Both the position numbers and the translations under genes were made by a program. A stretch of 64,000 nucleotides of DNA from an uncultured Anaeroplasmatales bacterium. Its GTDB lineage: Bacteria > Bacillota_I > Bacilli_A > Acholeplasmatales > JAEDCM01. Numbering within the stretch: the stretch's first letter is position 1; each line of letters starts with the position of its first letter. This document shows, piece by piece, positions 7,646 through 61,056 of this stretch. The DNA is taken from positions 784 to 64,783 of the forward strand of contig CAZWLD010000003.1 in the NCBI GenBank assembly GCA_964634685.1, read 5' to 3'. Below the pieces are notes generated by a model. It was given only the letters and a program-made list of their open reading frames with translations, had not been told where the DNA came from and did not search any database.

Positions 7646-8313
7646 TTTAAAACTCTCCTTCTATCTATTTTTTTTGATATATATAATCCAAGCTCTTGAA
7701 TGAGCTGAACTATCGCAATTACTACAATAATTAACACCCAAAAATATATTGATGTTAAATAGCTTCCCGTATTTCCAGCGTAATAATCCCAAATGCCACT
7801 AATCAATCCACCCGCACCAATGTTGTAGGCAAAGGACGTATATCCTAGAATTGAGACAAGGGAAACTGCTAAGCCTGAAACAAGAGATGAGCGGGCTTCT
7901 GGAAGCAGAACCTTATATACTAATTGCCAATTTGAAGCTCCAAGTGATTTCACTGCTTCTAATTCTCCAGCTGGAACCTCAGCTAACGATTGCTCGACCA
8001 TACGAGCTACAAAGCCAAAAGCCGCCACCGATAAAGGAATGATAATTGTTTGCCATTCACCGGTAGCTATTCCAAAGATGGCTCTTGTTACTGGCATACA
8101 CAACAAAACCAAAATCAAGCAAGGAATGGAACGGAGGATATTAACAATCAATCCTACAACCAAATTAACCCACCGATTAGGTCTCAACCCATTTTTTGAA
8201 GTTATATTAAGTAATACACCAATTGGCAAGCCGACTAAATACGCTAGAAAGGTTGAAATAAAGGTCATACCAATTGTAATGAAGGTCATACTTATAATAC
8301 TACTCCAATCCAT
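7642..8313 (-). CDS. metI: Methionine ABC transporter permease
   Basis: NILRSIPCLIL and EAA-like loop (ELEAVKSLGAS); start after GAGGAGG. Confidence 0.88.
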   Translation of the reverse strand: MDWSSIISMTFITIGMTFISTFLAYLVGLPIGVLLNITSKNGLRPNRWVNLVVGLIVNILRSIPCLILVLLCMPVTRAIFGIATGEWQTIIIPLSVAAFGFVARMVEQSLAEVPAGELEAVKSLGASNWQLVYKVLLPEARSSLVSGLAVSLVSILGYTSFAYNIGAGGLISGIWDYYAGNTGSYLTSIYFWVLIIVVIAIVQLIQELGLYISKKIDRRRVLK

Positions 8314-9271: not shown

Positions 9272-9294
9272 TAAATGCACCTCCTTAAAAATAT

Positions 9295-9565
9295 AAAAAC
9301 TCGCCCCTAATATAAGGACGAGTGTATCTCGTGTTACCACCTTACTTTATTATTATCCTTGCGAATAATAATCTCACTAGCTACTATCATAGCATATCGC
9401 TTTAACGGGCGAACTCGTTATACCCTAATCATATTGACTCGAATATACAACTCCAAGGCCATGTTCAATTAGCTTTCCTATGCTTGCTTTCACCTTTCCA
9501 AGCTCTCTAAAATAGTATTTCTAATTTACTCTTCTCTTCAACGTCTTTAATTGGTTTATTAAATT
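9295..9565 (-). ncRNA. T-box riboswitch, Met specifier
   Basis: Minus strand: stem I AG-bulge/GGTGAAAGC, specifier GAAC-ATG-GCC (ATG at 9462-9460), T-box AAGGTGGTAACACG (9343-9330), then terminator hairpin 9323-9299 and U-run. Confidence 0.88.
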
Positions 9566-9773: not shown

Positions 9774-12700
9774 TTAGTTTGCTTTTTTAAATTTCACAAA
9801 TACTAATGCAGCACCACCAGCAATAGTTAATACCATAAATACAATTGATACAACCATACATACTTGAGCAGTATTAGCTTTGGCAGTAGCGGCTTTTAAT
9901 GCAGCCTCGGCAGCAGCTTGGGCAGCTTCAGCCTTAGCTTGAGCATCAGTTGCAGCAGCTTTATCAGCATCAGTAGCATTTTGAGAAGCTTCAGCAGCAT
10001 TCTTAGCAGCAAGAGCAGCATCCTTTAATGTATTAGCTTCATTGCGAGCAACCTCAGCAGCAGCTTGAGCAGCAAGAGCTTGAGTTCTTAAGCTTTCCGC
10101 ATCAGCCTTGGCAGCCTCGGCAGCAGTTTGAGCAGCAAGAGCTTGAGCTTTTAGAGTTTCTGCTTCATTCTTGGCAGCAAGAGCAGCAGCCTTTAATACA
10201 GCAACCTCTTCTTTTGTTGCAGTAGCACTTGCTAAAGCAGCTTCAGCAGCAGCTTGGGCAGTTTCAGCAGCTGTTTGAGCTTCTTCAGCAGCAGTTTGAG
10301 CGGCAACAGCTTTGGCTTGAGCCTCTTCAGCGGCTGTTTGAGCGGCAGCAGCTTGAGCTTTTAAGGTTTCTGCTTCAGTCTTGGCAGCTTCAGCAGCTTC
10401 TTGAGCAGCTTCGGCAGCAGCTTGGGCAGCAAGAGCAGCAGTTTTGGCTTCTTCAGCAGCAGCTTTTTCAGCTTGAGCTTCAGCTAAAACACCTAATACA
10501 GTAATATAATTCTCCGCAAATTCAAGATAATGAATATTCGTAATTGATGCTTTTTGGGTTTCAGTTAATGATTCATAATGAGCACGAATAGTCGCAACTA
10601 CTTCTTTATCAGCTAAAGTAAGAGATGTGTAATCCTTGCATGAATTAACTTCCTCTTGAACCTTTGCAATATCTAAATCCTCACCATCATAAACAACTAA
10701 TTCGTCTGGAGCAAATGTACCAGCAGGGAATTGTCCGGCTAAAACGTCAGTAAAGTCTGCCATCCAATGAGCTCCAACCTCATAGTTTTGAGGAAGGTTA
10801 GTATTAAAATCTTTGACATAATCGGTTGTTAATACATCTTTGGATACGAATAAATCATATGATGGATTAGTCTTAAGATCTTTTAACATTACAAATTTAA
10901 CATTTCCAATTGATTTAGTTTCTTCTGATGGACTTACAAATTCAGTTGTGCTATTTGTGAATGTTGTATATGCTAAATATCCGTTTTCAGTGAATGTACC
11001 ACCAACTAAAACTGGAACGGCATCACCTTTACAAACTACATAACGTAAATTTGGACAATTATTGAAGGCATTTTCACCAATACGCTTTAAGCTTGCAGGT
11101 AAAGTAACTGAACCAAGTGTTTCATTTCCAGCAAAGACACCATTTGCAATCGCAACAACACCATCTGGGATAACAACATTTCCACCTTCACCATTGTAAG
11201 CTGTTAAAACATTTGAAGCGTTAACAACAAATTCAGGAGCACCTGGATCTGGAGTACCTTCTGCTGTTGTAACATTTACTGTGTTTTGATTTAACGCATA
11301 TGAAGTAGGTTCAGCTTCGGCACCAATCTCAATAACATAATCGTTTTCATTGAATGCATAATCAACGAATCCTAGATAGAATCCACCATTTGCGGCAGCA
11401 TCATCATAAATATCAGTAATATCAATCTTTTGAGTTACTACTTGATTCTTTTCAGTAGCTGTACTTGCAACATCAAAATATGAATTGAATTCAGCATCAT
11501 AAAGGCAAATTGCTTGAACATAGTAATTATCCCAATATGTTACTTCTAAATAATATTTATCACCCTCTTGGGTAATCTTGTGATCTAACATTGTTGATAA
11601 TTCTTGGTCAACAACGATATCAATGCTTTGAGAATCAGAATAAGTAAGACCATCTGATCCAGTCCACTCTGCATCCATAACAACTTCGAATTCCATATTA
11701 TTCTTCATATAATCTGGTAAAAATTTATTCATATTGGCATAGAAATTACTATATGTATATGAGTTAAAAGCACTATATTGTGGTAAGAAATATGATTGTC
11801 GTAAGAAATAATTATAATCGAAAGGTGATAAATTCTCTCCTGTTACCTTATCATAAACACTAAATTCTTGATAATCAACATTCTTTAGCATTGAGAATTG
11901 ATATGAATATATTCCATAGAAGGTTCCAAAATTGCTATTTTGATTTACAGCACCATTAATGACGAAGGTACCATCAAATGGAGCAGGCTCATATCCTTTC
12001 TTGAAATTGAAAACCTCTTCAGCAAAAGTTGATTGATCTATCGTATAGAATTTACCATTTTGAAGGAATAATGAAGTAACAGTTAATCCATCTTTACTAA
12101 TGAAATCTTGACCAAAATCCATTACCTCTTCCCATGGAGCAATATCAAAGGCTGGGCTTGCATCATAATCACCATAGAAGGCAAGGAATGGAACACTTAA
12201 TGTTACATCACCAGTTAATGAAACAAATCCTTCAATATATGTACCATATTTGAAGATGAAATCATATGATTCCTTATCCTCATCACTAAGGGTTACTGTT
12301 ACTGTTACCTTAGCAGTACCATTAGCATTAACAGTGACAACTGAACCAGCTAAAGATCCAGCACCAGCTACGCTATATTCAACTAATGAATCAGATAAAA
12401 CACAATCAAATTCCTCTAATGACACGCCATAGTTAGTATCTAATCCCATAACTAATGTCGAAATATCAAAGCTTGCAGCATTAGCTTCATCCATATTAAC
12501 TAGGTTGAAGGTCATTTCATAAACACCAGTTTTAGAAGCATCCTTTCCAAGCTCTAGCTTAACACGGTCAGTTCCATCAACAGTGATATATTGCTTTGTT
12601 GTTGTCGCAGCTGCTAGGTTAACTAAACCAGCACCTTGTTTACGTGGTGAATAAACATTACCATCTTCATTAGCAACAACAGTAGCTGTACCCATTAATA

Positions 12701-14765
12701 ATTGATATGTTAATGTGTTTGCCGCAACAGGATCAACTACACCTAAGACTTCACGAACATATTGCTTAACAACAACAGTTGAACCGGCAGTATTAGGAGA
12801 AGCCATTGAGGTACCACTCATTAATACATACTTATTACTTTCAGCATCAGCATATGGATATGAACTCCAGACTTCTCCACCAGGAGCGGTAATTTCTGGT
12901 TTTAATTTAAGGTTAACATCACCCCAAGATGAGAAGATTGACATATCAGGGATTGTTTTTTGATTAGCAGGATCAACAGTTAATGTTTTTGTATCTGCAG
13001 CTGCTAAAGCATCTCCATATTCCTTTGTAACGGCACAAATAGGGAATGTAGCAAGCCTAGAATATTCAGTAACAACATTTCCTTCTTCATCAGTAACATC
13101 GATTGCTTCTGCTACAGGGCTTAGTGCACCAGCTGCATTGTTATAAATTACACAAGCGATAGCTCCAGCATTTAAAGCATTGAAAGCTTTATCTTGGAAA
13201 GAAAGTGATCCACGTTGAACTAAGGCAATTTTTCCTGTAACATCAACAGCAGCAAATTCTTCGGCTGAACCAAGACCACAATCAACATATTCATAAGTTC
13301 CTTTACCATTGGCATTACAGAAATCACGCATAAAGTCACCATAAACATTGTTAGTTTGGTCTTTTACAGACTCATTATAATACATTTCAGTTCCATCAGC
13401 GCTAACTAGCTTATATGCTGCAACATTTAAGGTATCAATACTTGCGACTGTAAGTGATGCTGGATAACTACTTGGAGAACCGATTGAACCGATATTATAG
13501 CCACTAGTTGTACCATAGTTTCCATACATACCACCATATGAAGAGCTATATGAGTTTCCTGCTGAAACACATAAAGCGATACCTTGAGCTACAGTAGCCT
13601 CATAAATAGCATCAATTGGTGTAAATGTATCAGTATCATAATCTACCATTGGCTCATAGAAGCTAAATCCAGATGCTGAACCTAAGCTCATATTGATAGT
13701 ATCAACACCAAGCAAAGTTGCATCCTCAATAGCAGCTAAGATATCAACGGTAGCCGCACCATTGTCGTTATCAGAGAAAACCTTGAAAATAGCTAATTGC
13801 GCATCCTTAGCAATACCAAAGAAATCAACACCGTTGTTTCCGGCAACAGTACCAGCAACGTGAGTTCCGTGACCATTTCCAAATTCCTCTAATGTTTCAA
13901 AGCATGGAGTTACATTGCAATCATTATCAGCATAGTCGAAGGCATAAGCAACCTTATTACCAACAACAACATCAGCAACAGCAAGAGTTCTTGCTTCTTC
14001 TCCTTCGCCAACAGTTTCATATCTTTCCTTAGCATTTAAACTAGCAAGAACAGCTTCAACATCAGAAGATGTAAGAGCAGGTGTTCCTGTATAGAATTCA
14101 TCACTGAAGGCCTCATGATCAACCATTAATCCGGTATCAATGATAGCCGCAACCATACCTGAACCAGTATATTCAAGATCGGTACCATTCATCTCACCAC
14201 GACCAGTGCTTGTACCATTTGCATCGTAGGATACAACATCACTAGCATCAAGGCTATAGATTTGAGATAGATAGACACCTTCAACTCCACTAATCTTGGA
14301 AATTGACTTGATATCCTTAACTTTAACAGTCATTGCAAAACCGTTAAATAAATTTGTATAAGAATACTTATATTCAGGCTTATAGGCTAAACCTAATTTA
14401 TTAATTGAATTTTTAACCTTTGTTTGAGTTGCTAATATTTCACCAACGGCCTTAACGCCATCAGTTGTATTAACATATTCAGACAATTTTTTGTTTACTG
14501 ATACCTTTGAAACCAAAGCGTCACCTTTTGTTTTAACAATTACATCAACAAAAGAATCTTCATCAAGCTCAACGATATCATCATCGGCAACAACACTAGC
14601 ATTTAAAAGATTCGCAAAGATATCTCTTTCCTTGTCTCTTTCAACTTGAGTGGCTGTCGAAGCGATTGTTTTAACATTTTTCGCAAGAACACCAGTTGTC
14701 GCTAAGGTCATAACACCAAGAGCAACTGCTGTCAATGCGGTTGTTAATTTTTTCAAAACTTTCAT
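9774..14765 (-). CDS. Cell-surface S8 serine proteinase (lactocepin/C5a-peptidase-like) with PA domain, short BspA-LRR insert, Ala-rich coiled-coil stalk and C-terminal TM anchor
   Basis: Signal peptide; triad IIDTG / HGTHVAGT / GTSMASP; PA insert (GKIALVQRG); IPDGVVAIANGVF LRR; about 200 aa of A/E/Q/K heptads; hydrophobic C-tail ending KFKKAN. Confidence 0.9.
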   Translation of the reverse strand: MKVLKKLTTALTAVALGVMTLATTGVLAKNVKTIASTATQVERDKERDIFANLLNASVVADDDIVELDEDSFVDVIVKTKGDALVSKVSVNKKLSEYVNTTDGVKAVGEILATQTKVKNSINKLGLAYKPEYKYSYTNLFNGFAMTVKVKDIKSISKISGVEGVYLSQIYSLDASDVVSYDANGTSTGRGEMNGTDLEYTGSGMVAAIIDTGLMVDHEAFSDEFYTGTPALTSSDVEAVLASLNAKERYETVGEGEEARTLAVADVVVGNKVAYAFDYADNDCNVTPCFETLEEFGNGHGTHVAGTVAGNNGVDFFGIAKDAQLAIFKVFSDNDNGAATVDILAAIEDATLLGVDTINMSLGSASGFSFYEPMVDYDTDTFTPIDAIYEATVAQGIALCVSAGNSYSSSYGGMYGNYGTTSGYNIGSIGSPSSYPASLTVASIDTLNVAAYKLVSADGTEMYYNESVKDQTNNVYGDFMRDFCNANGKGTYEYVDCGLGSAEEFAAVDVTGKIALVQRGSLSFQDKAFNALNAGAIACVIYNNAAGALSPVAEAIDVTDEEGNVVTEYSRLATFPICAVTKEYGDALAAADTKTLTVDPANQKTIPDMSIFSSWGDVNLKLKPEITAPGGEVWSSYPYADAESNKYVLMSGTSMASPNTAGSTVVVKQYVREVLGVVDPVAANTLTYQLLMGTATVVANEDGNVYSPRKQGAGLVNLAAATTTKQYITVDGTDRVKLELGKDASKTGVYEMTFNLVNMDEANAASFDISTLVMGLDTNYGVSLEEFDCVLSDSLVEYSVAGAGSLAGSVVTVNANGTAKVTVTVTLSDEDKESYDFIFKYGTYIEGFVSLTGDVTLSVPFLAFYGDYDASPAFDIAPWEEVMDFGQDFISKDGLTVTSLFLQNGKFYTIDQSTFAEEVFNFKKGYEPAPFDGTFVINGAVNQNSNFGTFYGIYSYQFSMLKNVDYQEFSVYDKVTGENLSPFDYNYFLRQSYFLPQYSAFNSYTYSNFYANMNKFLPDYMKNNMEFEVVMDAEWTGSDGLTYSDSQSIDIVVDQELSTMLDHKITQEGDKYYLEVTYWDNYYVQAICLYDAEFNSYFDVASTATEKNQVVTQKIDITDIYDDAAANGGFYLGFVDYAFNENDYVIEIGAEAEPTSYALNQNTVNVTTAEGTPDPGAPEFVVNASNVLTAYNGEGGNVVIPDGVVAIANGVFAGNETLGSVTLPASLKRIGENAFNNCPNLRYVVCKGDAVPVLVGGTFTENGYLAYTTFTNSTTEFVSPSEETKSIGNVKFVMLKDLKTNPSYDLFVSKDVLTTDYVKDFNTNLPQNYEVGAHWMADFTDVLAGQFPAGTFAPDELVVYDGEDLDIAKVQEEVNSCKDYTSLTLADKEVVATIRAHYESLTETQKASITNIHYLEFAENYITVLGVLAEAQAEKAAAEEAKTAALAAQAAAEAAQEAAEAAKTEAETLKAQAAAAQTAAEEAQAKAVAAQTAAEEAQTAAETAQAAAEAALASATATKEEVAVLKAAALAAKNEAETLKAQALAAQTAAEAAKADAESLRTQALAAQAAAEVARNEANTLKDAALAAKNAAEASQNATDADKAAATDAQAKAEAAQAAAEAALKAATAKANTAQVCMVVSIVFMVLTIAGGAALVFVKFKKAN

Positions 14766-31213: not shown

Positions 31214-33341
31214 GTTTCCCCCCCTTTTTCTTTTTTCCCTTAACATGGTTATCTATACTTTTTACCAAACCAAAATCAATTGTTTTTGCGGCTTTACTTG
31301 CATTTGTAACCTTAACCTTAACGCGATCACCTAATTGGAAATAGCGTCTGCTAATTTCACCAATAATAATCATTCTTTGTTCATCAAAGGAATAATAATC
31401 AAAATCAATTTTGCTAATGTGGATTAAGCCTTCAACGCCATTAGGTAATTCCACAAACATTCCAAAATTAGTTAGTGATGAGATTATTCCCTCAAATACT
31501 TCACCAATATGTCCCTCCATATATTCCGCTGCCTTCATCGAAATAACATCCCGCTCACAATCAACAGCGGTTTTTTCACATTGGGACGTATATAAGGCAA
31601 ATTCCGGCAAATGGTTAATCCAATAATTAATATTTTCTTGATTTGTTTTCTTTTCAAACAAAAATTCATGAAGCATTCGATGAACAAGAGTATCTGGATA
31701 TCGTCTAATTGGCGAGGTAAAATGCGTATAATATTTTAAAGCTAAGCCATAATGGCCTAAGCATTCCTCACTGTAGCGCGCCTTCATCATTGATCTAAGC
31801 ATTAAAATATTGATTCCTTCGGCTCCTGGCTTTCCCTCTAAGGATAAAAGTAAGCTTTGGCAATCATGCGGCGTAATCTCATCGCTTAAAAAGCCAGCCT
31901 TATAGCCCATATTTTTGATAACATTCAAAACTGCATTGATTTTCTTTTTATCTGGAGCTTCGTGAACACGATAAATAAATGGCAAATTCATTTGATTTAT
32001 CGTTCTTGCGACCGTTTCATTAGCCATTAGCATAAATTCTTCAATAATGCCTTCCGCAACGCCCCGCGGCTTGATATATATTTCTAAAGGATAACCCTTT
32101 TCATCAACCTTAAATTTCGGTTCCTTGGTTTCAAAATCAATAGCACCTCTTAGGTAACGTGCATCCGATAGAATCGAAGCTAAATCCGCCATATCATCGA
32201 AGAAGCTCTTTAAATATTGGTAGCGAGCTACCATAATTTCATCATTATCTAAGATCGCATTAACAGCCGTATATGTCATTCGTTCATTCGAATTAATGAC
32301 ACTCGGGAAAATATGCGAATTAACAACATGACCATTTTGATCAATTTCCATTTCACAAGCAATTACTAAACGATCAACATGTGGATTAAGTGAACAAATA
32401 CCGTTACATAAACGCTCTGGAAGCATTGGAATAACGCGATCAACTAAATAAACAGATGTTCCTCGCAAATAAGCCTCTTGGTCAATTTTGGAGTCTCTTT
32501 TAACATAATGACTAACATCCGCAATATAAACGCCTAAAAAGAAATTGCCATTATCGAGCCTTTTTACGCTTACAGCATCATCTAAATCCTTAGCGTCCTC
32601 GCCATCAATTGTCACAACCGTATAATCTCTTCTGTCAATTCTTCCTTCGATTTCACTTTCATCAATCGTATCACTAATCGAGGCTGCCTCTTGATACACC
32701 TCATCACTAAACTTTGTCTCTAAATCATATTTATAGCAAACGGATAAGATGTCAATTCCTGGATCATTAATTGAACCCAAAATTTTCGTAACGGTCGCAT
32801 AAACATAATTAGGTCCATATTCGCTGATAAAGGCCTTTACCTTATGATCATTCATTGCGCCTAATGAATCTTCATCCTTAACTAAGATGTTAAATTTATC
32901 ATTTGGATTATCACTAATAATCAAATTGAAGCCTTGTCCACGCTTAAAGGTTCCAACAATCGTATGAGCTCCCCGCTCAATGATCCTGATGACATCGCCC
33001 TCACTCCTGAGCTCATCATCATATTCATAACAAACCTGCACTAAAACAATATCACCCGAAAAAGCGCCATTAACATTATTTTTGGGAATAAAAACATCAT
33101 CATGTCCTTCAATGGTCACAAAGCCATAGCCTTTATCCTTTACTTGGATTTGTCCTCGAAAAATATTATAAAGGCTTGGCTTACAATAGAAATTTTTCTT
33201 TTTTAATAAATACCCCTCTTCAACTAATTGATCAAGAGCCTTTTTTAAACCCTCTTGTTCACCAACAATATTTAAAAAGGCATTATATTGAAGCATTGTA
33301 AAGCTTTGATCATTAATGATTTCCATTATTTTTTCTTTCAC
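31176..33341 (-). CDS. rnr: Ribonuclease R
   Basis: RNB motif TIDGEDAKDLDDA, YTHFTSPIRRYPD, C-terminal S1 domain; secG-rnr-smpB synteny. Confidence 0.95.
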   Translation of the reverse strand: MKEKIMEIINDQSFTMLQYNAFLNIVGEQEGLKKALDQLVEEGYLLKKKNFYCKPSLYNIFRGQIQVKDKGYGFVTIEGHDDVFIPKNNVNGAFSGDIVLVQVCYEYDDELRSEGDVIRIIERGAHTIVGTFKRGQGFNLIISDNPNDKFNILVKDEDSLGAMNDHKVKAFISEYGPNYVYATVTKILGSINDPGIDILSVCYKYDLETKFSDEVYQEAASISDTIDESEIEGRIDRRDYTVVTIDGEDAKDLDDAVSVKRLDNGNFFLGVYIADVSHYVKRDSKIDQEAYLRGTSVYLVDRVIPMLPERLCNGICSLNPHVDRLVIACEMEIDQNGHVVNSHIFPSVINSNERMTYTAVNAILDNDEIMVARYQYLKSFFDDMADLASILSDARYLRGAIDFETKEPKFKVDEKGYPLEIYIKPRGVAEGIIEEFMLMANETVARTINQMNLPFIYRVHEAPDKKKINAVLNVIKNMGYKAGFLSDEITPHDCQSLLLSLEGKPGAEGINILMLRSMMKARYSEECLGHYGLALKYYTHFTSPIRRYPDTLVHRMLHEFLFEKKTNQENINYWINHLPEFALYTSQCEKTAVDCERDVISMKAAEYMEGHIGEVFEGIISSLTNFGMFVELPNGVEGLIHISKIDFDYYSFDEQRMIIIGEISRRYFQLGDRVKVKVTNASKAAKTIDFGLVKSIDNHVKGKKKKGGKHENHRSKQKGRV

Positions 33342-40510: not shown

Positions 40511-40583
40511 TTATTATATACTATTTCTTTTTTAAAATAAATAGAAAAATATAAATATTAGAAAAAGTAAGCGTTTTGCAAAG

Positions 40584-40616
40584 AAATAGGAACACCATAG
40601 AGATGTTCCTATTTTT
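40584..40616. terminator. Terminator after the giant LRR gene
   Basis: AAATAGGAACA / TGTTCCTATTT stem. Confidence 0.7.
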
Positions 40617-40654
40617 AGTAAGAAATACAGATTTTGAATTTTGTTATTTAAAAT

Positions 40655-43600
40655 CTATCCTAGAATTTGTTCTTTTGTTTTTGCATAAACAACATTAGCA
40701 TTAATTTGATTAACAACATTTACGCTTGTTGATGTGATGTTTCCAACTTGAGCGCTTGTCATTCCACCGGTAATGGTATTAATAGTCGTGATTTCACCAG
40801 TCGATCCATTATATTCAAATACTGACCAAAGACAGCCATTACCGCTTGGCGCATCAAATTCTTGAACTAAGGCTCCATTAATGTATAATGCAACATGAGC
40901 ATCAGAGGTTGAAATTCCATTTGAAGTTGTACTTCCACCATGGGTATAATCATAAACACTATAGCGATAGATTCCTTCTTGAAGTTCAAGAACTGTAATA
41001 ACCTCAGGGCCAAAGCTTGTTGTATCATCAATATCTAAATTTGTTCCTGTAGTTGGATCAACCTTGTTATAGTAATAAATATGATATGAATCAGTGCCAT
41101 TTGTATATGTCATATGTGAATCTAAATCCTTTGGATTTTCTCCCCATGTTAACACTACAATCATTTCACGGTCACTAAATTGATCAAGGATATCCATTTC
41201 AAGACTATTTAAGATAATTTCTTCATCACCATCAACTTCAATCTCAATTTGTTTTGAATAGCTACCGCTCGTAACATTTAAAACGTATGTTTCATTTGGA
41301 ATATTTTCAAAGCCAGCGCCGTAATATGTGCTAAGACCGCTATATAAAACATTACCAAATTCATCATTTAAGGTTGCTACGACCTCTAATCTTTCATTAT
41401 CACTGCCTAAAACTGTTACTCTTACAAGGTTTCCATCAACAAATCGAATTTCATAGCTACCAGCATTGTTATTCCAATTTGTTGCCTTTGTAATAGCATT
41501 CCATTCGGTTTCTAATCCGCGGAAGTAAATTAATTCAAGATTACTTGCCCCTGAGATAACATTGTCCCCAATGTTTTCCAAAGAAGCTGGTAAAGATATT
41601 TCTTTGATAGTTGTCAAATTACTAAATGCACCATATAAAACATCGGTTGCTCCTGAAATAATTTCAATTCTTTCTAAACCTGAAGGAATATAATAAGTTA
41701 CTGATTGTGTATCTGTGTATGATTGACTAACGGCAACACTTCCTGTATATGAGGTTTTACCAAAGATTACGCCAAATAATGTTGCGGCAGTTGGTGTAAT
41801 TGAATAACCATCAATTCCAACAAATGGCAATGAAATCTTTGTAACAGAACTACAGCCTTTAAACATTCCTTCTGCTAAAACCATTACCGTTGATGGAACT
41901 CTAATTTCATTAGCGTTACTACAATTTACAAAGGCATTAGATCCGATGGTCATTAAGCCTTCCTTCATAATGATTTCTTCAAGTGAAGAACAATTATAGA
42001 AGGCATATTCTGCGATTGTTAACACATTTCCAGGAATATCAAATTCCTTCAATGCAGTACAATTATAGAAAGCATAATCAGCAATTGTTTTGACTCCATC
42101 TCCACCTGTTACATATTGTAAGCTTGTACAATTATAGAACATTTTTGTTCCTATTAGACTTAAGCTATTTCCTAGATGGATACTTACTAATCCAGATCCT
42201 TCAAACACATTATTTCCAACATTCGTAATTGAATCAGGAATTGTTATACTCTTAATTGCTTTACAATTATAGAAGGCATAATCTCCTAAAGTAAGAAGAT
42301 TTTCATTTAAAATCACATTTTCAAGCTTTGTACAGCCATAGAAGGTGTATGCTCCAATTGCGGTTAGAGTTGAAGGAATTTCAATTCTTTCAAGTGATGT
42401 ACAGCCTCTAAAAGCACTAGCACCTAAATCAGTAATTTCTCCTAATTCAATATAGGTTAATTTTGTACAACCGTAGAAGGCTTCAGCGCCAATAATTTGA
42501 GCGGTTGAAATTGATAATCCTGTCAAAGCTGTACAATTTTTAAATGCACCAGTACCAATTGATTTAACATTACCAAGGGTTACATTGGCTAATTTATTAC
42601 AGCCTAAGAATACATAATTTCCTAGCTTTTCAATTCCTGAACCAATTTCTACTGATGCTAAAGAAGTACATCCATTAAATGCATAATCTCCAAGAGCAGT
42701 AATACCATTTCCAATTCTTATTCCTGTTAAGGAAGCACACTTAGCAAAAGCATAATTTCCAATTGTTTTAAGTGAATCAGCTATTCTAACTGAGGTAATC
42801 TTTGTATTATAGAACGCATATTGACCAATGCTTTCAATACTACTACCAAATTTAATTCCAGATAAATTTGTACAACCATAGAAAGCTCTATTCGCAATAC
42901 TTTGAACATTATCAGGTATTACAATTTGTGTGAAATTAGTACAACCTTCAAAGGCACTTTCACCAATACTTAATAATCCATTAGATAATGTTATCGATGA
43001 TATACCTGTACAACCATAGAAAGCATTTGCGCCGATCGTTGTTACATATTCTGGTAAAGTAAGACCAGTTAACTTCGAACATTTATAGAAAGCATATGTT
43101 CCAATTGTATTCAATTTTGAGCCAAAAGTAACAGTTCCTAAATTTGAACAGCCATTAAACGCATAATCTCCAATCGTTTTAAGGTTTTCGCCCAAACTAA
43201 CAGTAACTAAACCACTACAATTATTGAATGCGTAGCTACCTAATGTTGTGACACTATCGGGAATTGTAAATGAGGTTAAACCAGTGCATCCATCAAATGC
43301 ATAGGAACCGATACTTGTAATTTCGCCTCTACATTCAACTGTTCTTAAATTTGATAATCCACTAAACATACTATTAGGTATTGAAGTAATTCCACTACCC
43401 AAAACAATAGTTTCTAAACCGCTACATCCTCTTAATGCAGTTGAATCAATTGATGTAACACTATCAGGAATAACTAAATTAATAATATTTTTACAATTCA
43501 TAAATGCTCGTTCTCCTATACTTGTAATTGAATCAGAGAAGGATAAACTTGATAAATTTGTACAACCATCAAATGCATAGCTTGAAATTTTCGTAGGACC

Positions 43601-46600
43601 CACAACACTAATATTTGTTAAATTTGAGCAATTTTGGAACAAGTAGTCTGACATCGTTCCGTTTCCTGTTAAATTAACAATTCTTAAAGAAGATGGTACA
43701 TAATAAGTTGTATAATTCTGCACAGTGGATGTACCACCAGTATAGCTAGTTGTACCAAAAATATATCCAAAAGTATTCCCATTTAAAAGTGACAACGGTA
43801 ATGATAATTCATTTAAACTTGTGCATCCTTTGAGAGCTCCACTTATTTCACTACTAGTTGCGCCAACATACTTAACACTTTCAGGAATAATGATTTTTGT
43901 CAAGTAAGAACAATCTCTAAATGCATCAGAATAATATATTTGATTTGTTGTATCCTTTAATTCAAATGCTCCGGTATTATCTGTTGGTTTACCAAAATAT
44001 ATTTTGTTATTAATTAAATAATCATCCACAATTAAATTACTTGAAATTAATGTATCAACAATAACATCATTATTGTCTCCTATATATCCCAAAAGAGTAT
44101 CTTCACTTATATGTATTTCTATTAAATTTACACATCCATTAAATGCAGATGAACCAATATAGTTTACACTAGTTGGGATTTCCATGCTTATTCCTTTATA
44201 TCCACTAAATGCATATTCTCCTATGCTTGTTATTGTTGGATTATCCCATACTATATCACAAGTACAATTATAGAATACATATTCTCCTATGCTTGTTACA
44301 CTAGTTGGGATTTCTATACTTGTTAAACCGCTACAACCTTCAAATGCATAGTTTCCAATACTCGTTACACTTGAAGGAATTGTTATACTTGCTAATCCAC
44401 TACAATCATAGAATGCATGATCTCCTATACTTGTACAGCCTTCTAATATTTTTACTGTTTTCAAGCAGCTTGGAACATAATCCGCATTACGAAAAGAGCT
44501 GCTAGCACCAAATATATATCCTAAATATGATTCGTAGAAACCATTTCCGATAAATGGTAAAGTAATACTTTCCAAACTACAGCCACTAAATGCACTAATT
44601 CCTATTTCTGTTACACTTGATGGAATTACAATGCTTGTTAAACTACTACAATTCCTAAAAGCATAGTTTCCTATACTTTTTACGCTTGTTGGGATATCTA
44701 TGCTTGTTAATCCACTACAACCACTAAATGCACATTCTCCTATGCTTGTTACGCTTGTTGGGATTTCCATACTTATTCCTTTATATCCACTAAATGCATA
44801 TTCTCCTATATTTGTTATTGTTGGATTATCCCATACTATATCGCAAGTACAATTATAGAATGCACATTCTCCTATGCTTGTTACATTCTCTGAAACAGTA
44901 ATATTTACTAAATCACTACAATTATAGAACGAACCATACAATAAACTTCCTCCTAATACTGTTACACTAGTTAATGTTGATGGTATGTAATAAGTATCAG
45001 TTCTTGTACTTAAACCATAGTAATATTGTTCTGTGGCAACTCCTCCATCATAACTAATAGTACCAAATATATATCCAAATGGATATTGATAAGTGTCACT
45101 TGATGTTTTTATTCTTTCACCTATAAATGGTAATGTTATTGAAACTAAGCTACTACAACCACTAAATGCATATTCTCCTATGCTTGTTACGCTTGATGGG
45201 ATATCTATACTTGCTAAGCCACTACAACCTTTAAATGCATAATTTCCTATCCTTGTTACGCTTGATGGAATGTCCACACTGGTCAATCCTGTACAATTAT
45301 AGAATGCATAATTTCCTATGCTTGTTACGCTTGTTGGGATTTCCATACTTATTCCTTTATATCCACTAAATGCATATTCTCCTATACTTGTTATTGTTGG
45401 ATTATCCCATACTATATCGCAAGTACAATTTTTAAATGCATATATTCCTATGCTTGTTACACTAGTTGGGATATCTATGCTTGTTAATCCACTACAACCA
45501 CTAAATGCATATTCTCCTATACTTGCTACACTTGAAGAAATTACTACGGTTGATAAGTTACTACAACCACTGAATGAATACCCCTCTATACTTGTTACGC
45601 TATTTGGGATTTCTATGCTTGTTATACTACTACAACCACTAAATGCATATTCTCCTATGCTTGTTACACTAGTTGGGATATCTATTCTTGTTAATCCACT
45701 ACAACCACTAAATGCATATTTTCCTATGTTTGTTACGCTTGATGGAATGTCCACACTGGTCAATCCTATACAATTATAGAATGCATAATTTCCTATGCTT
45801 GTTACATTCTCTGAAACAGTAATATTTACTAAATCACTACAATTATAGAACGAACCATACAATAAACTTCCTCCTAATACTGTTACACTAGTTAATGTTG
45901 ATGGTATGTAGTATGTTCCAGATGTTATGCTACTAGTACTTGAACCATAGTAATATTGTTCTGTGGCAACTCCTCCATCATAACTAAAAGTACCAAATAT
46001 ATATCCAAATGGATATTGATAAATGTCACTTGATGTTTTTATTCTTTCACCTATAAATGGTAATGTTATTGAAACTAAGTTACTACAACCAATAAAGGCT
46101 GATTTTCCTATGCTTGTGACTCTTGTTGGAATTTCTATATTTGATAAATTACTGCAATATGCAAATGCATAATTTCCTATCCTTGTTACGCTTGATGGAA
46201 TTGTTATACTTGCTAATCCACTACAACCATAGAATGTATGATCTCCTATGCTTGTTACACTTGTTGGAATATCTATGCTTGTTAATCCACTACAACCTTC
46301 AAATGCAGAATTTCCTATGCTTGTTACACTTGATGGAATATCTATGCTTGTTAATCCACTACAACCTTTAAATGCGTAATTTCCTATGCTTGTTACATTA
46401 TCTGAAACAGTAATATTTACTAAATCACTACAATTATAGAACGAACCATACAATAAACTTCCTCCTAATACTGTTACACTAGTTAATGTTGATGGTATGT
46501 AATAAGTACTACTTTCTCTACTTGTTGTACTTGAACCATAGTAATATTGTTCTGTGGCAACTCCTCCATCATACCTAATAGCACCAAATATATATCCAAA

Positions 46601-48337
46601 TGGATATTGATAAGTGTCACTTGATGTTTTTATGCTGTCGCCTATAAATGGTAATGTTATTGAAACTAAGCTACTACAACCACTAAAGGCTGATTTTCCT
46701 ATGCTTGTTACACTAGTTGGGATTTCTATACTTGTTAAACCGCTACAACCTTCAAATGCATAGTTTCCAATACTCGTTACACTTGAAGGAATTGTTATAC
46801 TTGCTAATCCACTACAACCACTAAATGCTGATTCTCCTATACTTGTACAGCCTTCTAATATCTTTACTGTTTTCAAACCACTTGGAACATATTCATTCTT
46901 AAATGCAGATCCATACGGACCAAATATATATCCTAAATATGATTTGCCGGAACCATTTCCGATAAATGGTAAAGTAATACTTTTTACTCCACTACAACCA
47001 CTAAGTGCATATTCTCCTATACTTGTTACGCTATTTGGGATTTCTATGCTTGTTAAACTAGTACAATCAGCGAATGCATATACTCCTATACTTGTTACGC
47101 TATTTGGAATTTCTATGCTTGTTATACTACTACAACCACTAAATGCATGATTTCCTATACTAGTACAGCCTTCTAATATCTTTACTGTTTTCAAACCACT
47201 TGGAACACATTCACTATTAAGTCCAGTTCCAGACGAACCAAATATATATCCTAAATATGATTTGCCGGAACCATTTCCGATAAATGGTAAAGTAATACTT
47301 TCTAAACTACTACAACCATAGAATGCATGATCTCCTATACTTGTTACGCTATTTGGGATTTCTATGCTTGTTATACTTCTACAACCACTAAATGCATATT
47401 CTCCTATACTTGCTACACTTGAAGAAATTACTACGGTTGATAAGTTACTACAACCACTGAATGAATACCCCTCTATACTTGTTACGCTATTTGGGATTTC
47501 TATGTTTATTAACTTACTACAGTTATAGAATACATATTCTCCTATACTAGTTACACTTGATGGGATTTCTATACTTGTTAAACTACTACAATTATAGAAT
47601 GAATACCCCTCTATACTTGTAACTCCCTCAGGGATTGTTATACTTGTCAATGAACTACAATTTTTAAATGCCAACCTTTCTATGCTTGCTACACTTGAAG
47701 AAATTACTACGGTTGATAAGTTACTACAACCAGAAAATGCACCTTCTCCTATGCTTGTAACGCTTGATGGAATTTCTATACTTGTTAAACTAGTACAATC
47801 AGCGAATGCAAAACCTCCTATTTTTGTTATGCTAGTTGGAATAGTTATACTTATTAAGTTACTATAATCAACGAATGCAGAACGTCTAATTTCAGAAACA
47901 GGTAGTCCATGTACAGTAGATACTATGTTGAGAGAAAAACTAGCTTCATTCCATAAATTACATCCCACTACAACATAATAACTACTGTCTGCACTTAATG
48001 TATACCACACATTATCTATAAGCACACTATCACTATTGTTAGATTTTTCATATCCACAAACAGCACAAACACCATCCTCAAATTGATGTTTCTCTGAATC
48101 TTTGATTTCATTTACATGCTCGCAAGTTGCCGCATGCCAATGATAGACATCATTATAACTCCATTCACTCGAGTAGCTATGTGAATGAGTTGTCTGATTG
48201 TTATTAGTTGTCTGATCATTATTAGTATCAACAGGATAATCCGGTCTCACTGCTGTACCGCATGATGTTAATAAAAATGACACACTAATCATTAACATCA
48301 AAAGACAAATAATTGATAATCTTTTCCCTCTCCTCAT
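40655..48337 (-). CDS. 2560-aa BspA-type (LRR_5) surface lipoprotein with C-terminal YfaP/DUF2135-like domain
   Basis: LLTSC lipobox; His/Cys motif HWHAATCEH...CAVCG; dozens of IPxSVTSIGxxAFxxCxxL repeats; C-terminal VLTWGENPKDLDSH...DDTTSFGPE. Confidence 0.9.
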   Translation of the reverse strand: MRRGKRLSIICLLMLMISVSFLLTSCGTAVRPDYPVDTNNDQTTNNNQTTHSHSYSSEWSYNDVYHWHAATCEHVNEIKDSEKHQFEDGVCAVCGYEKSNNSDSVLIDNVWYTLSADSSYYVVVGCNLWNEASFSLNIVSTVHGLPVSEIRRSAFVDYSNLISITIPTSITKIGGFAFADCTSLTSIEIPSSVTSIGEGAFSGCSNLSTVVISSSVASIERLAFKNCSSLTSITIPEGVTSIEGYSFYNCSSLTSIEIPSSVTSIGEYVFYNCSKLINIEIPNSVTSIEGYSFSGCSNLSTVVISSSVASIGEYAFSGCRSITSIEIPNSVTSIGDHAFYGCSSLESITLPFIGNGSGKSYLGYIFGSSGTGLNSECVPSGLKTVKILEGCTSIGNHAFSGCSSITSIEIPNSVTSIGVYAFADCTSLTSIEIPNSVTSIGEYALSGCSGVKSITLPFIGNGSGKSYLGYIFGPYGSAFKNEYVPSGLKTVKILEGCTSIGESAFSGCSGLASITIPSSVTSIGNYAFEGCSGLTSIEIPTSVTSIGKSAFSGCSSLVSITLPFIGDSIKTSSDTYQYPFGYIFGAIRYDGGVATEQYYYGSSTTSRESSTYYIPSTLTSVTVLGGSLLYGSFYNCSDLVNITVSDNVTSIGNYAFKGCSGLTSIDIPSSVTSIGNSAFEGCSGLTSIDIPTSVTSIGDHTFYGCSGLASITIPSSVTRIGNYAFAYCSNLSNIEIPTRVTSIGKSAFIGCSNLVSITLPFIGERIKTSSDIYQYPFGYIFGTFSYDGGVATEQYYYGSSTSSITSGTYYIPSTLTSVTVLGGSLLYGSFYNCSDLVNITVSENVTSIGNYAFYNCIGLTSVDIPSSVTNIGKYAFSGCSGLTRIDIPTSVTSIGEYAFSGCSSITSIEIPNSVTSIEGYSFSGCSNLSTVVISSSVASIGEYAFSGCSGLTSIDIPTSVTSIGIYAFKNCTCDIVWDNPTITSIGEYAFSGYKGISMEIPTSVTSIGNYAFYNCTGLTSVDIPSSVTRIGNYAFKGCSGLASIDIPSSVTSIGEYAFSGCSSLVSITLPFIGERIKTSSDTYQYPFGYIFGTISYDGGVATEQYYYGLSTRTDTYYIPSTLTSVTVLGGSLLYGSFYNCSDLVNITVSENVTSIGECAFYNCTCDIVWDNPTITNIGEYAFSGYKGISMEIPTSVTSIGECAFSGCSGLTSIDIPTSVKSIGNYAFRNCSSLTSIVIPSSVTEIGISAFSGCSLESITLPFIGNGFYESYLGYIFGASSSFRNADYVPSCLKTVKILEGCTSIGDHAFYDCSGLASITIPSSVTSIGNYAFEGCSGLTSIEIPTSVTSIGEYVFYNCTCDIVWDNPTITSIGEYAFSGYKGISMEIPTSVNYIGSSAFNGCVNLIEIHISEDTLLGYIGDNNDVIVDTLISSNLIVDDYLINNKIYFGKPTDNTGAFELKDTTNQIYYSDAFRDCSYLTKIIIPESVKYVGATSSEISGALKGCTSLNELSLPLSLLNGNTFGYIFGTTSYTGGTSTVQNYTTYYVPSSLRIVNLTGNGTMSDYLFQNCSNLTNISVVGPTKISSYAFDGCTNLSSLSFSDSITSIGERAFMNCKNIINLVIPDSVTSIDSTALRGCSGLETIVLGSGITSIPNSMFSGLSNLRTVECRGEITSIGSYAFDGCTGLTSFTIPDSVTTLGSYAFNNCSGLVTVSLGENLKTIGDYAFNGCSNLGTVTFGSKLNTIGTYAFYKCSKLTGLTLPEYVTTIGANAFYGCTGISSITLSNGLLSIGESAFEGCTNFTQIVIPDNVQSIANRAFYGCTNLSGIKFGSSIESIGQYAFYNTKITSVRIADSLKTIGNYAFAKCASLTGIRIGNGITALGDYAFNGCTSLASVEIGSGIEKLGNYVFLGCNKLANVTLGNVKSIGTGAFKNCTALTGLSISTAQIIGAEAFYGCTKLTYIELGEITDLGASAFRGCTSLERIEIPSTLTAIGAYTFYGCTKLENVILNENLLTLGDYAFYNCKAIKSITIPDSITNVGNNVFEGSGLVSIHLGNSLSLIGTKMFYNCTSLQYVTGGDGVKTIADYAFYNCTALKEFDIPGNVLTIAEYAFYNCSSLEEIIMKEGLMTIGSNAFVNCSNANEIRVPSTVMVLAEGMFKGCSSVTKISLPFVGIDGYSITPTAATLFGVIFGKTSYTGSVAVSQSYTDTQSVTYYIPSGLERIEIISGATDVLYGAFSNLTTIKEISLPASLENIGDNVISGASNLELIYFRGLETEWNAITKATNWNNNAGSYEIRFVDGNLVRVTVLGSDNERLEVVATLNDEFGNVLYSGLSTYYGAGFENIPNETYVLNVTSGSYSKQIEIEVDGDEEIILNSLEMDILDQFSDREMIVVLTWGENPKDLDSHMTYTNGTDSYHIYYYNKVDPTTGTNLDIDDTTSFGPEVITVLELQEGIYRYSVYDYTHGGSTTSNGISTSDAHVALYINGALVQEFDAPSGNGCLWSVFEYNGSTGEITTINTITGGMTSAQVGNITSTSVNVVNQINANVVYAKTKEQILG
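44890..46501. repeat. Three DNA-identical 100-bp blocks within larger repeated LRR modules
   Basis: CTGAAACAGT...GATGGTATGTA is identical at 44890-44989, 45811-45910 and 46402-46501. Confidence 0.9.
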
Positions 48338-48489
48338 TTTTCTTTGGAATAATCCTATTGTACTTAAGATTATTCTCCTCCTTCATTACTAAATTAAAGC
48401 GATATTATGAGTACAACATAATCAAATATCTTACATACTTTTAACCTTAAAATTAAGTTTTAATATATATAATATATTTATCCATTTTC

Positions 48490-48516
48490 ATTTTAACCCC
48501 CCCCGACCTTTGTCAA
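48490..48516 (-). promoter_or_regulatory. Candidate promoter of the giant LRR gene with a G8 tract in a 15-nt spacer
   Basis: TTGACA (48516-48511), AAGGTCGGGGGGGGT, TAAAAT (48495-48490). Confidence 0.6.
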
Positions 48517-48668
48517 GATTTTTGGAAAATATTGTTATATTTTGTCTAAATTTCGATTCAAAGTCCCTGTTATATTGTAGTTGTAATATAAAGAAGACAA
48601 TAGAGAGTATAAATAAAAAAAGTCTCTTTATTAAAAAGAGAACTCAAATATTTCTAAACAAATCTAAA

Positions 48669-48845
48669 TTAATTTTTTTTGTAAAATGAAACAATGATTT
48701 TATTTGCTTCCTTAAAGCTTATCTCACCATTCATTGCCCTTGCAAGGATTTCTTTTACACGATTCTCAACAATACATCCTTCTTGCTCAACCATTCCAAT
48801 AGCTGATCTTAAAATTACTTCCTTTGTCGCCTTTTTTTCTTCCAT
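48669..48845 (-). CDS. VbhA-like antitoxin (58 aa, below the ORF-track cutoff)
   Basis: Hand translation MEEKKATKEVILRSAIGMVEQEGCIVENRVKEILARAMNGEISFKEANKIIVSFYKKN; EG and GEIS motifs; AAAGGTG RBS. Confidence 0.7.
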   Translation of the reverse strand: MEEKKATKEVILRSAIGMVEQEGCIVENRVKEILARAMNGEISFKEANKIIVSFYKKN

Positions 48846-48964
48846 AAATTATTCACCTTTCTTTGCCTTTCTTATACATATATTATAACATATTTATATA
48901 TATAAATCTACTCAAATCAGGGCTTTCAGAAAAAAAGGCCTATTTTTTTTAGGCCTTTTAAGAA

Positions 48965-58368: not shown

Positions 58369-58905
58369 TTAGTTAGCTTCTTTTTTTTCTTTTAAAAGCT
58401 CAACAATCTCTGCTAATAATTCTTCAGTTGTTGGCTTAACAACCTCAGGCTCTGGTTCTGGTTCAACTGCCTCAACGACAACTTCCTCTTCCTTTTGCTT
58501 TTTCAATTTTTCTTCGAATTCTTTACGCTTTTTAGCAAATCCATTTGCGACCTTTAAAATGATAAATAAAGTCAATGCGATAAAGAAGAAATTGATGATT
58601 GACTCAAAGAAGGCACTCCAATTGATGTAATTTAAGACAGTATAAGACTTACCATTAGGTCCTAAAACTGTCGCAGCGCCATTTGCAATATCCTCGGCAG
58701 TTGCTAAAACACTATTTGGCATAATTGTGTATAAGCATTCACCATCAGTAATGTAAGATAGTGCCCAGTTAACAACTGGCATCAAAATTTGTTTATTTAA
58801 GGTTGTGACGATGGTATTGAAGGCACCTCCGACAATAACACCGACAGCCATATCAAGAATGTTTCCTCTTGTAATAAATGCTTTAAATTCTTGAACTAAT
58901 TTCAT
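58369..58905 (-). CDS. mscL: Large-conductance mechanosensitive channel, copy 2 (long extracellular loop)
   Basis: EFKAFITRGNILDMAVGVIVGGAF and SIINFFFIAL. Confidence 0.88.
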   Translation of the reverse strand: MKLVQEFKAFITRGNILDMAVGVIVGGAFNTIVTTLNKQILMPVVNWALSYITDGECLYTIMPNSVLATAEDIANGAATVLGPNGKSYTVLNYINWSAFFESIINFFFIALTLFIILKVANGFAKKRKEFEEKLKKQKEEEVVVEAVEPEPEPEVVKPTTEELLAEIVELLKEKKEAN

Positions 58906-58918
58906 TTTTTAATCTCCT

Positions 58919-60820
58919 CTACTTTAAATCTTTGATTTGTTCTTTAATCATTGCGACAAATTCATCCACTGGAACATTAATTTGTTCTTGTTTGCCATAA
59001 CAACGATAGGTTACCGTATTGGTATTAACCTCATTATCACCAATTACTAATTGATAAGGAATTTTCTTGGTTTGGGCCTCACGAATCTTATATCCAAGCT
59101 TTTCATCACGATAATCGTCCTCAAAACGAATACCAGCCTCAAAGAAAACCTTATTAAGCTTTTCACAATAATCCTTGTGTAAGCTCATATTAACAGGAAT
59201 TATTTTTACTTGAACTGGCGCAAGCCATGTTGGGAAGGCACCCGCATAGTTTTCAATAATAATTCCGATGAATCTTTCTAAAGATCCGAAACAAGCACGG
59301 TGAATCATTACTGGGGTTTTCTTCGTTCCATCCTCGGCTACATATGTACAATCAAAACGACCTGGCAATTGCATGTCTAGTTGCACTGTTCCACATTGCC
59401 AAATACGATTCATTGAATCCCGAAGCTTGAAGTCAAGCTTTGGGCCATAGAAGGCACCATCACCTGGATTGATTTTAAAATTATGACCAGTCGCTAGACA
59501 AGCTTTTTTAAGAGCCTCTTCAGCCTCATCCCAAACCTCAATTGATCCGATGAAATTATCCTCAGGACGAGTCGATAATTCAATTGAATAATCAAGACCG
59601 AAAACCGAATAAACGTAATCGTATAATGATAAAATACGCGCAACCTCTTCTCCAACCTGATCCTCACGTAATAAAATATGAGCATCATCTTGGGTAAAGC
59701 CACGAACTCTAAATAAACCGCTTAAAGCACCACTTGCCTCATAACGATGAACATTTCCTAATTCTGAATATCGAAGTGGCAAATCCTTATAGGAATGAAG
59801 TTCATTTTTATAAACCAAAATAGCTCCTGGACAGTTCATTGGCTTAATGGCATAGGTTCCATCCTCCACATCAATTGTGAACATATCATCCTTATAATGA
59901 TCCCAGTGTCCTGATGTCTCCCATAATTGACGATTAAGCATAATTGGCGTATTGATTGTTAAATATCCACGCTCCTTATGTAATCTTAACCAGAAATCCT
60001 CTAATGTACGTCTTAAAGTATAGCCATTAGGAAGCCAGAATGGTAAACCTGGACCATAATCAGAAATCATAAATAAACCAAGCTCACGGCCAATCTTACG
60101 GTGATCTCTTTTCTTTCTTTCCTCAAGATTAGTCAAATGATTTTTTAATTCATCGGCAGTATAGAAGCTTGTGCCATAAATACGTGTCAATTGTTTGTTT
60201 TTGGAATCTCCTCGCCAGTAGGCTCCGGCAATTGATAATAGCTTGAAGTTTTTGATTTCCTTCGTATTTAATAAATGAACACCACGGCATAAATCTCTAA
60301 ATTCACCTTGTTCATAAATGGTAATTGTACCTTCTAGCTCATTAATCAATTCAACCTTATAAGGATTATCCTTGAAAAGCTCTAAAGCCTCTTCCTTAGA
60401 AACCTCGCGACGATTGATATCAACAGCCTCACTTGAAATATTAGCCATTGTCTTTTCAATTTTAGCTAAATCATCAGTTGATAAAACAACATCACCAAAA
60501 TCAATGTCATAATAGAAGCCCTCCTCAATAGTTGGACCAATTCCAAATTTAGCATTTGGATATAATCTTTTAACAGCTTGAGCAAGAAGGTGAGCTGTAC
60601 TATGATTTAAAACATCAAAGGCAATCGGATTTTCCTTCGTAATTAATTCTAAGCAACAATCATTTACAATCGGGCGATTTAAATCATATAGCTCATCATT
60701 AACCTTTGCACACACCGTTTTCTTTCGCAAATTTGGTGAAATCATAGCCGCAATCTCGGCAGCTGTAATTTGTTCCTGATATTCCTTTACTGAATTATCA
60801 GGAAAAGTAACCTTAATCAT
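58919..60820 (-). CDS. thrS: Threonine--tRNA ligase
   Basis: TGS domain, HSTAHLL, RDHRKIG, KPMNCPG, MIHRA; Thr T-box upstream. Confidence 0.98.
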   Translation of the reverse strand: MIKVTFPDNSVKEYQEQITAAEIAAMISPNLRKKTVCAKVNDELYDLNRPIVNDCCLELITKENPIAFDVLNHSTAHLLAQAVKRLYPNAKFGIGPTIEEGFYYDIDFGDVVLSTDDLAKIEKTMANISSEAVDINRREVSKEEALELFKDNPYKVELINELEGTITIYEQGEFRDLCRGVHLLNTKEIKNFKLLSIAGAYWRGDSKNKQLTRIYGTSFYTADELKNHLTNLEERKKRDHRKIGRELGLFMISDYGPGLPFWLPNGYTLRRTLEDFWLRLHKERGYLTINTPIMLNRQLWETSGHWDHYKDDMFTIDVEDGTYAIKPMNCPGAILVYKNELHSYKDLPLRYSELGNVHRYEASGALSGLFRVRGFTQDDAHILLREDQVGEEVARILSLYDYVYSVFGLDYSIELSTRPEDNFIGSIEVWDEAEEALKKACLATGHNFKINPGDGAFYGPKLDFKLRDSMNRIWQCGTVQLDMQLPGRFDCTYVAEDGTKKTPVMIHRACFGSLERFIGIIIENYAGAFPTWLAPVQVKIIPVNMSLHKDYCEKLNKVFFEAGIRFEDDYRDEKLGYKIREAQTKKIPYQLVIGDNEVNTNTVTYRCYGKQEQINVPVDEFVAMIKEQIKDLK

Positions 60821-60835: not shown

Positions 60836-61050
60836 TATAAAAAAAAGACATCCTTATATATAAGGACGTCATTAACGCGGTACCACCTTAGTTCTAGAAT
60901 AAATCTAGCTCTTGAATCTTTAACGCAGACCTACGGATTTCCATTTCTGGTTCTACTCCATGGGAGTAATTATAAAACAGTATATAGCAGCTTCCACCAT
61001 CTCTGCCTCGCTTGATATCTTCATCTTATAATCATATCCACTTCATCGTA
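60836..61050 (-). ncRNA. T-box riboswitch, Thr specifier
   Basis: AAGGTGGTACCGCG (60889-60876), terminator 60870-60838, AGTAGA-ACC-AG with ACC at 60951-60949. Confidence 0.88.
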
Positions 61051-61056
61051 CAATTT

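Follow-up and report, generated by a model that had tools for sequence, protein, structure and literature searches.

A poly-G tract of variable length in the candidate promoter of a giant BspA-type lipoprotein gene from an uncultured gut bacterium related to Acholeplasma

Results

The window, the whole stretch of 64,000 nucleotides that was analysed, carries between gpmI and eno the minus-strand gene for a 2560-aa BspA-type leucine-rich repeat (LRR) lipoprotein (40655-48337, with the ATG at 48337), the C-terminal part of which is a CarboxypepD_reg/YfaP-like region. The protein begins with MRRGKRLSIICLLMLMISVSFLLTSC, a lipoprotein signal peptide in which a positively charged start, a hydrophobic core and the lipobox MRRGKRLSIICLLMLMISVSFLLTS ahead of the cysteine can be read directly from the translation, and 22 stretches of it match the BspA-type family LRR_5 (Pfam PF13306) with 1882.8 bits against a gathering cut-off of 27.7. 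The LRR region (44164-47953, minus strand) is composed of 69-nt (23-aa) units and of longer repeated modules with up to 85% identity; such repeats would allow recombination to alter the size of the gene and are the likely cause of breaks in short-read contigs. A homologue search with the N-terminal 161 aa returned one unrelated 154-aa protein (P0001/L084) from a database evidently without giant proteins, which makes this result uninformative with regard to paralogues, and a search with the C-terminal region returned fragments of 63-65% identity, all of them just 3' ends on short promoterless contigs. The other LRR_5 protein of the window (9774-14765) is preceded by an ordinary promoter region with no repeat, and a multigene family with repeat-bearing promoters was not encountered within the window.

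The gene is part of a strain-variable cassette of approximately 8.0 kb (40578-48609, minus strand), which comprises an upstream region, the promoter, the gene and its terminator and is located between a small open reading frame (ORF) on the gpmI side and the eno promoter. In the strong intrinsic terminator of the giant gene, CUUUGC comes after a stem of 13 bp (40577-40614, minus strand; -17.3 kcal/mol, z = -6.2); this terminator is conserved in a conspecific strain with a different allele (contig L091, see below), and a terminator-like hairpin with a T7 run behind the small ORF (48615-48645, minus strand; -7.8 kcal/mol, statistically weak) is kept in all relatives, including the strain represented by contig L092, in which the cassette is absent. 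The downstream gene eno has its own conserved promoter and ribosome-binding site. With a terminator on each side, the giant gene is predicted to be a self-contained transcription unit that is insulated from gpmI transcription.

The small ORF between gpmI and the cassette (48669-48845, minus strand) encodes 58 aa, has a good ribosome-binding site and is kept in all close relatives, the empty-site L092 included. It has no significant match in Pfam, NCBIfam or PDB, and a resemblance to VbhA-type antitoxins would be speculative. On contig L093, which has a coverage of 3x only, an A7 in place of an A8 at the 3' end extends this ORF to 99 aa. In two related contigs (L003 and L090) gpmI and eno are adjacent, and in more distant relatives gpmI is found next to eno or is separated from it by other small inserts. 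The related contigs are from pig gut. The best match of GpmI in GTDB among the matches listed has 65% identity (Izimaplasma and Acholeplasmataceae metagenome-assembled genomes), and by this measure the species is to be regarded as poorly sampled; exact-pattern scans of JGI metagenome contigs with the left and the right flank gave 0 matches each, and the species is apparently not represented there.

Approximately 150 nt upstream of the lipoprotein gene, the minus strand reads aatcTTGACAaaggtcGGGGGGGGtTAAAATgaaaatgg. Herein, a -35 hexamer of perfect consensus, TTGACA (48516-48511), and a -10 hexamer TAAAAT (48495-48490), which agrees with TATAAT in 5/6 positions, are separated by the 15-nt spacer AAGGTCGGGGGGGGT (48510-48496), which contains a G8 homopolymer (48504-48497), the sole G/C run of at least 8 in the window. 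The initial annotation had described exactly this arrangement, two hexamers 15 nt apart with G8 between them upstream of the 2560-aa lipoprotein gene, and proved accurate when the coordinates were read again. In its immediate context the tract reads GTC-G(n)-TTAAAATG. Because no ORF of at least 20 aa crosses it, the tract is non-coding, which also rules out a switch by translational frameshift.

According to a rough weight matrix of our own, the TTGACA/TAAAAT pair scores higher than any other promoter candidate of the 330-nt region despite the penalty for its 15-nt spacer, and its own score is highest at G10; a simple promoter scan misses the pair because it takes spacers of 16-18 nt only. Further promoter-like pairs are present downstream and are weaker. 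The final G of the tract is found at -14 at every tract length, in partial agreement with an extended -10 element, and could provide basal activity independent of the spacer. By eye, no match to SigB, SigH, SigD or sigma-54 type motifs was recognized at the promoter. An invertible promoter of the fimS or mpl type was likewise rejected, as flanking inverted repeats are at chance level only, the best perfect pair around the promoter having a length of 10 nt in very AT-rich DNA. A second copy of the promoter or of the 5'UTR does not occur within the window. The TTGACA/TAAAAT pair is presumably the promoter that is actually used.

From the start expected for this promoter, the predicted 5'UTR extends over approximately 145 nt (48338-48489, minus strand), and neither in it nor elsewhere in the intergenic region was an Rfam family found. 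The window and L091 agree in 151 of 152 positions of the 5'UTR, compared with 81/89 (91%) directly upstream of the -35 hexamer. Such a distribution, 99% for the core promoter and the UTR versus 91% upstream, points to constraint on the promoter or, alternatively, to recent transfer. Within the 5'UTR, the strong Shine-Dalgarno-like sequence GAAGGAGGAG (48383-48374, minus strand) is located 37 nt 5' of the ATG and lacks a start codon at the usual distance. A hairpin of 11 bp (48375-48347, minus strand; -9.4 kcal/mol, z = -1.5) is predicted between GAAGGAGGAG and the ATG. Folding of this hairpin may bring the Shine-Dalgarno sequence to approximately 10 nt from the ATG and thereby create a structure-dependent ribosome-binding site; the segment that contains both elements (48347-48383) is identical in L091. 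Conservation continues into a 5' coding module (48049-48337, minus strand) that consists of the signal peptide, the lipobox and a Cys/His-rich N-terminal segment and is common to the 1726-aa allele of L091. In columns 120-290 of the coding sequence alignment 167/170 positions are identical, and beyond this module no DNA homology was detected.

Besides the candidate at the G tract, four promoters of the window combine a perfect TTGACA with a -10 hexamer of at least 5/6, and all four (61085, 38958, 34105 and 9601) possess 17-nt spacers, are intergenic and have the same orientation as the downstream gene. Two of the four are directly followed by T-box leaders recognized by Rfam (61055-60859 and 9550-9311), in each case directly downstream of TTGACA-17-TA(T/A)AAT, and these leaders are independent evidence that the two promoters are real. 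One of these two promoters (61085-61057), confirmed by its T-box leader, is TTGACA-17-TAAAAT and has thus the same hexamers as the pair at the G tract. The proposal of the initial annotation that G8, with 15 nt, is suboptimal and that G10 would provide the ideal 17 nt agrees with the 17-nt spacers of all four clear promoters; if 17-nt spacing is canonical in this organism, the spacer with G8 lacks 2 nt, which G10 would supply. As to the genes behind the leaders, the T-box at 60859-61055 (minus strand) precedes a gene for a 633-aa protein with threonyl-tRNA synthetase domains (58919-60820), and that at 9311-9550 (minus strand) precedes a 346-aa ORF (8300-9340).

By itself, a G8 anywhere in 64 kb is not remarkable. 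At least one such run was found in 24 of 100 shuffles of the window (mean 0.32), and G/C runs are not enriched in the window, with just two of at least 6, the G8 tract and a G7 at 31218-31224. What is unusual is the position, as the spacer of the region's best promoter candidate contains the longest G/C run of the entire window; the chance of such a position is well under 1% in a rough post-hoc estimate. The G7 (minus strand) is the ribosome-binding site of smpB within the 3' end of the RNase R gene, and its length is unchanged in contig L085 (92.7% identity).

The corresponding locus was recovered from several assemblies by exact-sequence look-up of window proteins and of members of the GpmI cluster. 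Contig L083 (SRR6824180) is 100% identical to the window over 7.2 kb and has G8; since it represents the window's own strain, this G8 is not independent. Contig L001 (SRR6824197) differs from the window in 1446 bp by one SNP and one extra G, which makes its tract G9, a length that is based on one Logan contig for which coverage is not given. The G tract is the sole indel between the two and, in a homopolymer census, the one of 17 long runs that differs. L091 (ERZ28436104, 27x; approximately 98.5% identical to the window) has G7 between identical hexamers, and L093 (ERZ13405065, 3x; approximately 98.3%) reads GGTC-AGAGGGGGG (AGAG6+), at which point the contig ends. L092 (SRR19897738; approximately 98.6%) lacks positions 48609-40578 and is an empty site, and in L085 (ERZ28436045; 92.7%) all that is left of the cassette is its left end of 110 nt, in which the hexamer reads TTAACA and the run is G5.

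Together, at least four tract alleles are present in five conspecific contigs, four of which are independent, a small sample. The initial annotation had set an invariant tract against its own proposal; the tract varies (G7, G8, G9 and AGAGGGGGG), with hexamers and 5'UTR otherwise conserved. All four gene-carrying strains have the same -35 hexamer, TTGACA, and its variant TTAACA is found in L085, where the gene is absent. The spacers of the alleles seen are all 14-16 nt long, and no G10 allele with a 17-nt spacer was found among the conspecific contigs compared.

Other homopolymers vary as well. Between strains approximately 1.5% apart, 3/24 and 3/16 other long homopolymers differ in length, and for A/T runs of at least 7 the proportion is roughly 10-15%. 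Since A/T runs also differ between strains, the length variation of the G tract is partly ordinary homopolymer instability, and for the same reason the G7 of L091 alone is weak evidence at this divergence. Every other long homopolymer in the compared DNA has at most two states, versus at least four of the G tract. Among further differences in the region, an intergenic A8 (48943-48950) is A7 in three strains, and L091 has gained a 6-nt ACCAGA repeat unit at window position 58450, inside a 178-aa ORF (58369-58905).

Both Logan contigs terminate close to the tract, L001 at window position 48479 and L083 at 48478, in either case 27 nt past the first G, so that the last 31-mer begins at GGTC irrespective of the tract length, G9 or G8. 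De Bruijn graph bubbles created by different tract lengths do not account for this shared end in any simple model; low coverage of the stretch of approximately 10% GC downstream or a second sequence context may account for it. As a sign of length heterogeneity in the population, contig breaks at or near the tract are suggestive only.

The cassette as a whole differs from that of the window in three of the contigs. In L092 (9236-9330) the terminator of the small ORF is joined to the eno promoter at an empty site from which the cassette is absent. In L085 (7782-8207) the cassette is reduced to a 110-nt stub; homology to the window breaks off precisely at the G run and is found again from the eno promoter onwards. 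L085 had hinted at a hybrid promoter created at the insertion junction, which was rejected, as it is evident from the empty site of L092 that the -35 hexamer and approximately 95 nt upstream of it belong to the cassette itself. In L091 (11789-17592) a different LRR_5 protein of 1726 aa is encoded, the LRR region of which is approximately 45% identical, as protein, to that of the window. Promoter, 5'UTR and the first approximately 290 nt of the coding sequence are common to both genes, and past its stop codon L091 has the same terminator, as well as the remains of a 3' end of the window type. In the place of the cassette, L085 (7955-8060) harbours a terminator-like hairpin and a 12-codon ORF, MKYCSQCGKKAD-stop, which looks like a truncated zinc-ribbon start and suggests earlier gene turnover at the site.

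Discussion

The poly-G tract between the -35 and -10 hexamers of the giant lipoprotein gene is probably an on/off or volume switch of a known kind, as far as can be judged from sequence, and the interpretation of the initial annotation as a switch is partly supported. We consider it reasonably likely that slipped-strand mispairing alters the number of G residues and hence the spacer length, which tunes transcription of the lipoprotein gene. The tract would act as a slippage-prone homopolymer in the spacer of a SigA-type promoter from which the LRR lipoprotein gene is transcribed as a monocistronic unit. With each G gained or lost, the distance between the hexamers would shift, from 14 nt (G7) up to 17 nt (G10), and the G number would in this way set promoter strength. 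The states that form the majority in the assemblies would then be off or low for G7 and G8 and intermediate for G9, with G10 as the on state. The expected outcome is a large surface protein with heritable and reversible low/off and on states, in other words transcriptional phase or 'volume' variation. Control of expression by tract length is here extrapolated from the 17-nt spacing of the organism's other promoters, and reversible switching within a lineage is likewise presumed. The type of gene, a surface lipoprotein at a locus subject to presence/absence and allele replacement, would fit such a switch by analogy.

The same tract might also be a neutral or decaying homopolymer that mutates fast without acting as a switch, with transcription from another promoter or from an extended -10 element, or with alleles that have drifted on the way to gene loss. 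We regard this as unlikely, and the observations divide. In its favour, the spacers seen are 14-16 nt and never 17 nt long, other homopolymers vary in length between strains as well, the locus is gone in L092 and decayed in L085, and alternative, weak promoter-like pairs are available. Against mere decay stand the two very long ORFs (2560 aa and 1726 aa), both of which are intact, as well as the hexamers and the 5'UTR, which are better conserved than their flanks. The G tract is moreover multi-allelic where other runs have two states, and its TTGACA/TAAAAT pair is the same as that of a validated promoter of the same genome. Still less probable is it that the length differences are errors of sequencing or assembly and that the tract is really invariant. 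Homopolymers are prone to error, L093 has 3x coverage only and also an A7 for an A8 nearby, and the G8 of L083, from the window's strain, is not independent; three lengths were however obtained from three short-read assemblies produced with different software, L091 at 27x, and the neighbouring A7, A8 and T7 runs agree when L001 and L082 are compared with the window. An explanation of this kind is thus very improbable.

A further reading assigns the G run mainly the role of a breakpoint at which the variable cassette recombines or is deleted, with its promoter-like context being secondary. It draws on the gap in homology between the window and L085, which begins exactly at the G run and extends to the eno promoter, on the two Logan contigs that end at a fixed distance of 27 nt past the first G, and on the contig of L093, which ends inside the run. 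The clean empty site of L092, on the other hand, breaks approximately 105 nt upstream of the tract at 48609, and the allele replacement in L091 begins approximately 290 nt into the coding region; these two endpoints are away from the tract, so that just one of three rearrangements ends at it. As the main role of the tract, a breakpoint is improbable, and it would also be compatible with a switch.

Returning to slippage in the promoter spacer as the preferred reading, its closest models are the porA gene of Neisseria meningitidis and tp0126 of Treponema pallidum, in which a poly-G lies between the -35 and -10 hexamers, expression is best at a 17-nt spacer and lost when the spacer is shorter, and tracts of 7-11 nt occur within and between isolates (PMC7864442). 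As in these systems, the G run of the giant lipoprotein gene separates the hexamers of a promoter of the sigma-70 type, and the product is a surface or outer-membrane protein. In contrast to them, the locus comes from an uncultured, low-GC relative of Acholeplasma and Izemoplasma in the gut, the gene encodes a 2560-aa BspA-type LRR lipoprotein, and the switch is a putative one. In mycoplasmas, a poly-A associated with the vlp genes of Mycoplasma hyorhinis and a dinucleotide repeat associated with vmm of M. mycoides switch transcription from within the promoter or spacer (PMC10502178). Shared with vlp and vmm would be a singly transcribed lipoprotein gene with a repeat in the promoter spacer, here predicted from sequence, and shared with vlp is the junction of a conserved 5' region and signal peptide with a variable repetitive mature region, as seen between the window and L091. 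The locus differs from vlp by a poly-G instead of a poly-A and by a single gene at the housekeeping locus gpmI-eno, with no tandem family as far as the window shows. The LRR protein is also approximately ten times larger than Vlp and shares no sequence homology with it. With respect to the protein family, BspA-like genes of Candidatus Mycoplasma girerdii show phase variation of simple sequence repeats in metagenome reads (PMC5476646). These genes have in common with the locus the BspA-type LRR family and a Mollicutes-type organism; they differ in that the tracts are mostly dinucleotides in the coding region and the switch is a translational frameshift. As the homopolymer of the giant lipoprotein gene is in the promoter spacer, its switch would be transcriptional.

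In a wider and more speculative reading, which is possible but doubtful, the gpmI-eno spacer would serve specifically for the expression of giant LRR lipoprotein cassettes that can replace one another. Recombination would swap or remove the body of the protein and leave in place a conserved module, which in this reading runs from the -35 hexamer through the poly-G, the -10 hexamer and the structured 5'UTR to the signal peptide and N-terminal domain, with the poly-G as on/off switch and fragile breakpoint at the same time. If this holds, antigenic variation of a Vlp-like kind would exist outside the mycoplasmas, in a commensal.

The mechanism of promoter-spacer slippage is already well known, so that the gain would be one of breadth and not of principle. 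If the tract is a working switch, phase variation of surface antigens through slippage in a promoter spacer would extend beyond the classical pathogens, among them Neisseria, Treponema and Mycoplasma, to uncultured gut bacteria related to Acholeplasma and Izemoplasma, where its target would be an adhesin-like lipoprotein of the BspA type and of very large size. The length of the tract, the presence or absence of the cassette and the allele that it carries constitute a simple marker readable from metagenomes, with which the population heterogeneity of this lineage and its interaction with the host could be tracked in vivo.
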